Assembly: GCF_054482595.1 (NCBI RefSeq) | Contig: NZ_CM137008.1 | Length of the DNA: 64,000 bases | Strand: one strand, 5' to 3' | In this document: in pieces, positions 39,277 through 39,852 of the stretch | Layout: each line of letters begins with the position of its first letter | How positions within the stretch are numbered: position 1 is the first letter of the stretch | The notes under the pieces: model-generated | Seen by the model: only the letters and a program-made list of their open reading frames with translations | The model's database searches: none | What the model was told of the DNA's origin: nothing | Translations under genes and position numbers: made by a program

Positions 39277-39852
39277 ATGGAATACTTTGATATGCATAAA
39301 ATGTCGGTAAATCTGTGGCGAAACGCTGCCGGTGAAACGCGAGAAATTTGCACTTTCCCACCGGCAAAACGTGATTTTTACTGGCGTGCCAGCATTGCAT
39401 CCATCGCGGCGAATGGGGAGTTTTCTTTGTTTCCCGGTATGGAAAGGATAGTGACGTTGCTGGAAGGCGGCGAGATGTTCCTTGAAAGCGCAGACCGCTT
39501 TAACCATACCTTAAAACCGTTACAGCCTTTTGCCTTTGCGGCGGACCAGGTGGTAAAAGCGAAACTGACGGCAGGGCAGATGTCGATGGATTTCAATATT
39601 ATGACGCGCCTGGATGTCTGTAAGGCGAAAGTCAGAATTGCCGAACGTACGTTTACTACCTTTGGCTCACGCGGCGGGGTGGTGTTTGTGATTAACGGGG
39701 CGTGGCAACTGGGCGACAAACTGCTCACTACCGACCAGGGCGCGTGCTGGTTCGATGGCAGGCACACCCTGCGGCTTTTACAACCGCAAGGTAAACTGTT
39801 GTTCAGTGAAATCAACTGGCTCGCTGGTCATTCGCCGGATCAAGTTCAGTAA
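39277..39852 (+). CDS. ves: HutD-family protein Ves
   Basis: Start placed at [15 protein letters not shown] (191 aa); 3' end overlaps convergent cho by 41 bp. Confidence 0.85.

Follow-up and report, generated by a model that had tools for sequence, protein, structure and literature searches.

The window analysed here, a stretch of 64,000 nucleotides of Escherichia coli chromosome, carries two genes that run towards each other and overlap at their 3' ends. On the + strand, ves (39277-39852) encodes the 191-residue HutD-family protein Ves and ends at a TAA stop at 39850-39852. On the − strand, cho (ydjQ; 39812-40699) begins with a GTG start, encodes 295 residues and ends at a TGA stop at 39814-39812. 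The surrounding order is astE, spy and ves on the + strand, facing cho and nadE on the − strand, and then osmE. The list of open reading frames and a direct reading of the letters both give a segment of 41 bp common to the two coding sequences (39812-39852, both strands). Each stop codon sits within the CDS of the partner and, as derived from the coordinates, ves codon positions 1/2/3 lie opposite cho positions 1/3/2.

The overlap described in the initial annotation is exact, being fixed by both stops and by the RefSeq annotations of this strain and of MG1655. Since a tail-to-tail overlap is set by stop codons alone, and both stops are unambiguous, it is not an artefact of start-codon annotation. 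RefSeq gives the same coordinates for strain XH990, with 100% identity over the 2 kb from 39000 to 41000, and this segment was found in 5425 of 5426 complete E. coli genomes. The same overlap is annotated in K-12 MG1655 (b1741/b1742), where cho occupies 1823515-1824402 (+) and ves 1824362-1824937 (−). The gene names, too, were correct: Ves is a full-length match to the NCBIfam equivalog NF008488 (425.9 bits, 191 of 191 positions) and Cho matches the equivalog NF007833 (579.5 bits, profile positions 1-287 of 289), both far over the cut-off. The overlap is already known, both from the E. coli reference annotations and from a published catalogue of convergent excludons.

The promoter region of cho confirmed that this gene belongs to the SOS response. 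A LexA box (CTGGATAGATAACCAG; 40715-40730, − strand) lies just upstream of the GTG start, and the cap-mapped transcription start of cho (MG1655 1823491, corresponding to 40723 of the window; SMRT-Cappable-seq, PMC6131387) falls inside it, so that the CTG-N10-CAG box overlaps the start site. An extended −10 element, TGtTACACT, would be located at 40737-40729. Consistently, a review (PMC6590174) names cho among the genes with a known SOS box, and one published SOS-inducing treatment raised ydjQ/cho 2.2-3.0 fold; ves was not among the changed genes reported for that treatment, and no ves entries were found in the SOS and ciprofloxacin transcriptome supplements that we searched. On the other hand, SMRT-Cappable-seq (PMC6131387) detected, in cells that had received no DNA damage, both a full-length cho transcript and a read-through transcript from nadE (40929-41756, − strand) into cho, starting at MG1655 1822427. 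Part of cho transcription therefore escapes LexA control at the promoter. The initial annotation had proposed that SOS induction of cho would generate antisense RNA across the 3' end of ves. This holds insofar as a full-length cho mRNA is necessarily antisense to at least the last 41 nt of ves; such antisense transcription is not specific to SOS, however, because the nadE-cho read-through transcript would cover the same region. According to Term-seq (Adams et al. 2021, PMC7815308), cho also contains a Rho-dependent 3' end only 24 nt into the gene, and a site at about 270 nt is sensitive to bicyclomycin.

Two side observations concern this regulatory region and its SOS motif. An Rfam scan of 38000-42500 gave nothing at the junction, and its sole match was the sRNA family ES036 (CssrF; 40807-40849, − strand; 42.9 bits against a gathering threshold of 37.6), which lies in the nadE-cho intergenic region, where a REP-like sequence adjoins it and the cho promoter follows closely. 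A second CTG-N10-CAG motif (CTGTCGATACGTACAG; 53815-53830) lies immediately upstream of ydjM (53211-53801, − strand), a second LexA-regulated gene in the window. Over the whole window, matches to CTG-N10-CAG number 29, against 11.9 ± 3.4 in shuffled sequences, an excess that probably reflects codon usage and composition.

The control of ves involves other regulators. Its FliA (sigma-28) promoter, at 39197-39224 on the + strand, is an exact match to the published ChIP-seq motif (Fitzgerald et al., PMC4183435). A published RutR binding site (TTTACCACCTGGTCCG; 39542-39557, − strand; centre +273.5) lies within the ves ORF, and ves was the sole RutR target with a detectable effect at the transcript level (PMC2475637). 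Any read-through from cho would have to pass this site, which could block the progress of either polymerase. Expression of ves was weak in the study of Fitzgerald et al. 2014 (PMC4183435), with 18 normalised units dropping to 0, and the SMRT-Cappable-seq files (PMC6131387) contain no ves transcript. Under standard conditions, ves is thus barely expressed. Its label as a cold-inducible gene reportedly goes back to Yamada et al. 2002.

We found no intrinsic terminator-like site in 39700-39950, and + strand folds across the junction are unremarkable (z = −0.6). In particular, the GC-rich hairpin with U tracts on both strands, at or between the two stops, that would identify a bidirectional intrinsic terminator was not found at the junction. 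The cho-sense RNA does form one predicted stem-loop of 12 bp (39765-39793, − strand; z = −2.73), which has no U tract and whose first base lies 19 nt past the cho stop. In the ves frame, it covers codons T163-K172 and the end of the H162 codon. A search of 39700-39950 for inverted repeats at the DNA level returned nothing, because the hairpin depends on G-U pairs. The stem-loop is present in all Escherichia loci compared and missing from Citrobacter. Its folding energy of −21.7 kcal/mol compares with −11.1 ± 3.75 kcal/mol for synonymous recodings of Ves, which makes it stabler than about 99% of them in what is a post hoc comparison (P about 0.012). It may be a structure that protects the 3' end of the cho mRNA.

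Past the cho stop, the cho-sense RNA is rich in C and poor in G, with a C/G ratio of 1.4-1.85 between +60 and +300, a rut-like composition that would favour Rho. The cho strand has its first intrinsic terminator beyond the ves promoter, namely that of spy (39094-39152), a long hairpin with U tracts on both strands and hence bidirectional (z = −7.6 on the + strand and −3.7 on the − strand). Its 3' end on the + strand agrees with a Term-seq end at 1825060, or 39154 of the window (PMC7815308); the tables of the same study contain no 3' end at the cho/ves junction.

To place the overlap in a broader context, we scanned species-representative genomes and obtained 80 Enterobacteriaceae loci encoding Cho. 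In 56 of these, ves is adjacent to cho and convergent with it; the coding sequences overlap by 4 to 45 bp in 51 of the 56 and are separated by a gap of 3-48 bp in the other 5. The length of the overlap follows lineages to a large extent. It is 4 bp (TTAA) in 5 genomes (Kosakonia), 7 bp in 6 (Phytobacter and others), 10 bp in 1, 15 bp in 3, 23 bp in 15 (Enterobacter and Lelliottia), 32 bp in 4 (Leclercia and Silvania), 41 bp in 15, comprising all Escherichia and the ves-bearing Citrobacter, and 45 bp in 2. Adjacency without a spacer is the rule, at 56 of the 59 ves-bearing loci where position could be measured, and it persists while the length of the overlap drifts. In the remaining 3 of the 59, ves lies about 1.8 kb from cho. 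Some of the gapped loci have a feature of their own: in Pseudescherichia vulneris (locus L053, 3877-3925), and similarly at L055 and L066, the two genes are about 46 bp apart, and this interval contains a small palindrome, CGCCTGCCG...CGGCAGGCG, that lacks a U tract. The pattern at these three loci suggests that a small hairpin element was inserted between the two stops.

In another 19 genomes, ves is absent within 3 kb of cho, and 2 more loci with broken ves matches were left unclassified. The genomes lacking ves include Salmonella, Klebsiella, Raoultella, Citrobacter sedlakii, Pluralibacter and Buttiauxella. Because both Salmonella and C. sedlakii sit among relatives that carry ves, the most parsimonious account is that ves was cleanly lost more than once, and it follows that cho has no need of ves as a neighbour. 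In Salmonella and Klebsiella, the two that we checked, cho converges on spy across a spacer of 75-90 bp that contains the spy terminator, identical at 28 of 29 bases to 39128-39156 of the window. In these genomes, cho is followed immediately by the terminator, which presumably works for spy and cho alike. When Salmonella is aligned with E. coli, about 686 bp appear to have been deleted, corresponding to roughly 39157-39842 of the window. We do not claim a remnant of ves in Salmonella, as the left boundary of the deletion inside the overlap is too poorly resolved.

The two C-termini that make up the overlap lie beyond the conserved parts of both proteins. In an alignment of Cho from 26 species, the last invariant column is L286 (39842-39844), after which come 0-9 unconserved residues; in E. 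coli these form the variable tail D287-S295 (39815-39841, − strand), which is antisense to Ves codons W181-Q189. The orthologs of Ves end in one of three ways, ...EITYL (181-182 residues), ...WLPGH (185 residues) or ...GHSPDQVQ (191 residues). The last form, with the extension S186-Q191 (SPDQVQ; 39832-39849, + strand), is confined to Escherichia and Citrobacter, and residues 183-185 are missing from the shortest orthologs. The core of Cho thus ends at 39842 with L286 and that of Ves at 39822 with about L182 (39831 if GH is counted), that is, 19 bp apart, and the conserved cores do not overlap in any of the species compared. What overlaps is the Cho tail, which is read over the end of Ves, and Ves S186-Q191, read over the final codons of the Cho core. 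The structure of Cho that AlphaFold2 predicted from a 26-sequence alignment was poor (mean pLDDT 67.3, pTM 0.52); it has a strand at 282-285 and a pLDDT below 50 at 290-295, which, within the limits of such a model, is consistent with these last residues being unstructured. PDB sequence searches left both C-termini uncovered and matched only the UvrC GIY-YIG domain (Cho 23-111) and HutD (Ves 14-149).

Both proteins extend 9 codons past the conserved core. In random sequence, 9 codons without a stop have a probability of (61/64)^9, or about 0.65, and the length of the overlap is no more than chance would give. Furthermore, the cho stop is the reverse complement of the junction at which the Ves Ile179 codon (ATC or ATT) meets an A-starting codon for residue 180 (Asn, Thr, Ser, Lys or Ile). 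It is at this junction that cho ends in the 23-bp class as well as in the 41-bp class. With Phe or Val as Ves residue 180, there is no stop at this point and cho is 9 nt longer, which yields the 32-bp class. Since two codons of Ves fix the position of the cho stop, the stop can be regarded as a by-product of Ves.

The substitutions within the overlap, which we analysed in 16 sequences of the 41-bp form, also follow Ves. Read in the ves frame, 8 of 12 codons' third positions and 4 of 12 second positions are variable, and the cho frame has the inverse pattern (8 of 12 at position 2 and 4 of 12 at position 3). Mean pairwise identity falls to 58% in the Cho tail against 80% in the 30 residues upstream; for the Ves tail the values are 80% and 86%. 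By this sequence comparison, substitutions in the overlap track the ves reading frame, with the Cho tail as an evolutionary passenger. In the same 16 sequences, the variability of sites in the overlap (17 of 35) equals that of the flanks (49 of 90 and 44 of 90). The overlap therefore has none of the additional nucleotide-level conservation that a site of RNA-RNA interaction would impose.

Such an overlap is ordinary for E. coli. The 64-kb window alone contains 9 convergent pairs, of which 2 overlap, ves/cho by 41 bp and ynjH/nudG by 35 bp (22317-22351; ynjH 22079-22351, + strand; nudG 22317-22724, − strand), while the genes of 2 more pairs are 3 and 8 bp apart. Lillo and Krakauer (PMC2174442) counted 58 convergent overlaps in E. 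coli, and according to Pallejà et al. (PMC2478687) the convergent orientation is the sole one that tolerates real overlaps. At the level of transcripts, cho-ves is one of the 165 convergent excludons that Sanmartin et al. (NAR 2025, PMC12288877) give for MG1655 (their Table 1). Their definition asks that RNA-seq coverage of the two genes overlap in no fewer than 50% of 58 MG1655 data sets, and nudG-ynjH and ynjE-ynjF, both from this window, are named as well. The authors of ExcludonFinder report that excludon pairs in general show higher synteny. We also observed that ynjH and ves are both non-flagellar genes with FliA-dependent promoters (Fitzgerald et al. 2014), so that two FliA-driven genes within 64 kb each overlap their convergent neighbour.

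Among known arrangements, cho/ves most closely resembles the conserved convergent overlapping pairs described by Rogozin et al. 2002, Fukuda et al. 2003, Lillo and Krakauer 2007 and Pallejà et al. 2008. As in those pairs, real genes on opposite strands have common 3' ends that originate from loss or shift of a stop, the C-terminus runs on to the next stop over less than 60 bp, and one of the two frames is constrained. Rogozin et al. asked for conservation of an overlap in at least two genomes; here 51 of 56 adjacent loci overlap, 15 of them in the 41-bp form. We see no essential difference from this class, to which cho/ves adds a series of lengths from 4 to 45 bp and a cho stop dictated by a conserved dipeptide of Ves. 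The pair also resembles the excludons of Listeria and S. aureus and of the E. coli excludome of Sanmartin et al. 2025, in that the genes converge, their transcripts necessarily overlap and the pair is catalogued. However, the hallmark of an excludon is mutually exclusive expression, whereas cho-ves was classed by transcript overlap alone and both genes are weakly expressed; moreover, the source of its overlap is the abutment of coding sequences, rather than a long UTR or a terminator located within the neighbouring gene. With the bidirectional intrinsic terminator pairs of Ju et al. 2019 and Wang et al. 2022 the pair has convergence and a common 3' region in common, but its junction lacks the GC-rich hairpin with A/U tracts, and the nearest one, the spy terminator, is on the far side of ves.

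Considering all the above results, we think it probable, and hold with some confidence, that cho and ves overlap by 41 bp incidentally, as a result of being tightly packed tail to tail with no spacer or terminator. Each frame would simply have run past its conserved core to the next in-frame stop, which happens to be located inside the partner gene. Such run-on would account for the non-conserved 9-residue tail of Cho, and likewise for Ves residues 183-185 and the six-residue extension of Escherichia and Citrobacter. Within the overlap, selection would then act on the ves frame, with the Cho tail carried along. A drifting length, repeated loss of ves and constraint on ves coding only are the pattern that an incidental overlap predicts.

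With no terminator separating them, cho and ves must each give an mRNA whose end lies within the partner gene. We infer that cho transcripts are probably stopped heterogeneously by Rho in the C-rich antisense strand of ves, perhaps with their ends trimmed back to the stem-loop at 39765-39793, and that they would be halted at the latest by the bidirectional spy terminator. Since both promoters are weak, a regulatory consequence of the transcript overlap is probably negligible. Three observations do not sit easily with a purely incidental overlap. The spacer-free adjacency across so many loci could reflect selection on the arrangement rather than inertia, the hairpin that follows the cho stop specifically in Escherichia hints at an RNA-level feature within the ves CDS, and synteny is reported to be higher for excludon pairs in general.

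The main alternative is that cho-ves works as a functional excludon, in which antisense RNA from SOS-induced cho lowers ves through polymerase collision, promoter occlusion or cleavage of the RNA duplex by RNase III or, in the reverse direction, ves transcription induced by sigma-28 or cold lowers cho. Transcript overlap is indeed unavoidable here, and it was reported in at least half of the 58 MG1655 RNA-seq sets (PMC12288877). With no terminator between the genes, and the first one on the cho strand lying beyond the ves promoter, read-through could span all of ves. Their regulators differ as well, cho being under LexA and ves under FliA and RutR. However, the published induction of cho was modest (2.2-3.0 fold) and left ves outside the reported changed genes, the nadE-cho read-through is present with no SOS induction at all, and ves expression is very weak. 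Rho-dependent 3' ends early in cho, together with the rut-like composition past its stop, weigh on the same side. So do the unconserved length of the overlap, the repeated loss of ves and the lack of any excess conservation in the overlap, and p19-based dsRNA validation was not feasible for convergent excludons in the source study (PMC12288877). We therefore regard a functional excludon as improbable. The cross-talk between stress responses that the initial annotation raised as a possibility is a generic one, applicable to any of the roughly 58 overlapping or 165 transcript-overlapping pairs; we found nothing particular to cho-ves in its favour, and it is unlikely for this pair.

A more specific form of the same idea, to which we give marginally less credence still, is a cis-antisense switch, in which cho transcription driven by SOS or by nadE reads across ves and its sigma-28 promoter and silences the gene. 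The reverse direction is also possible, ves transcription in motile or cold-grown cells damping cho, and in such a switch the hairpin at 39765-39793 may set a stable 3' end of the cho mRNA.

It is more doubtful again that the overlap has been selected as a termination device, with colliding RNA polymerases terminating each other in place of a bidirectional terminator. Head-on collisions have been proposed to drive termination at convergent pairs (bioRxiv 10.1101/2022.10.23.513370), and the cho/ves junction does lack a hairpin terminator. However, that model needs a stem-loop to position the collisions as well as high polymerase traffic; in the cho/ves overlap there is no terminator-type hairpin on either strand, both genes are weakly transcribed, and Term-seq (PMC7815308) reported no 3' end at the junction.

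Finally, an artefact of annotation or sequencing, involving a wrong stop or a pseudogene, is already refuted: Pallejà et al. (PMC2478687) did attribute many of the long convergent overlaps (>60 bp) that they examined to 3'-extension errors, but here both stops are directly legible, the sequence recurs in all but one of the complete E. coli genomes, both proteins are full-length equivalog matches, and identical stops are retained in the 15 species-level genomes of Escherichia and Citrobacter.

The incidental overlap of two closely packed genes thus remains the reading that we prefer, and as such it is of small importance, being present in every E. coli reference annotation and catalogued as a convergent excludon. 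If the cross-talk were true, it would add one more excludon, linking a minor SOS nuclease to Ves, a protein of uncharacterised function. The sequence carries no sign of selection for an interaction at the RNA level. Instead, with their separate conserved cores, lineage-specific tails and a stop dictated by a conserved dipeptide of the partner, cho and ves provide a worked example of how tail-to-tail overlaps form and drift.
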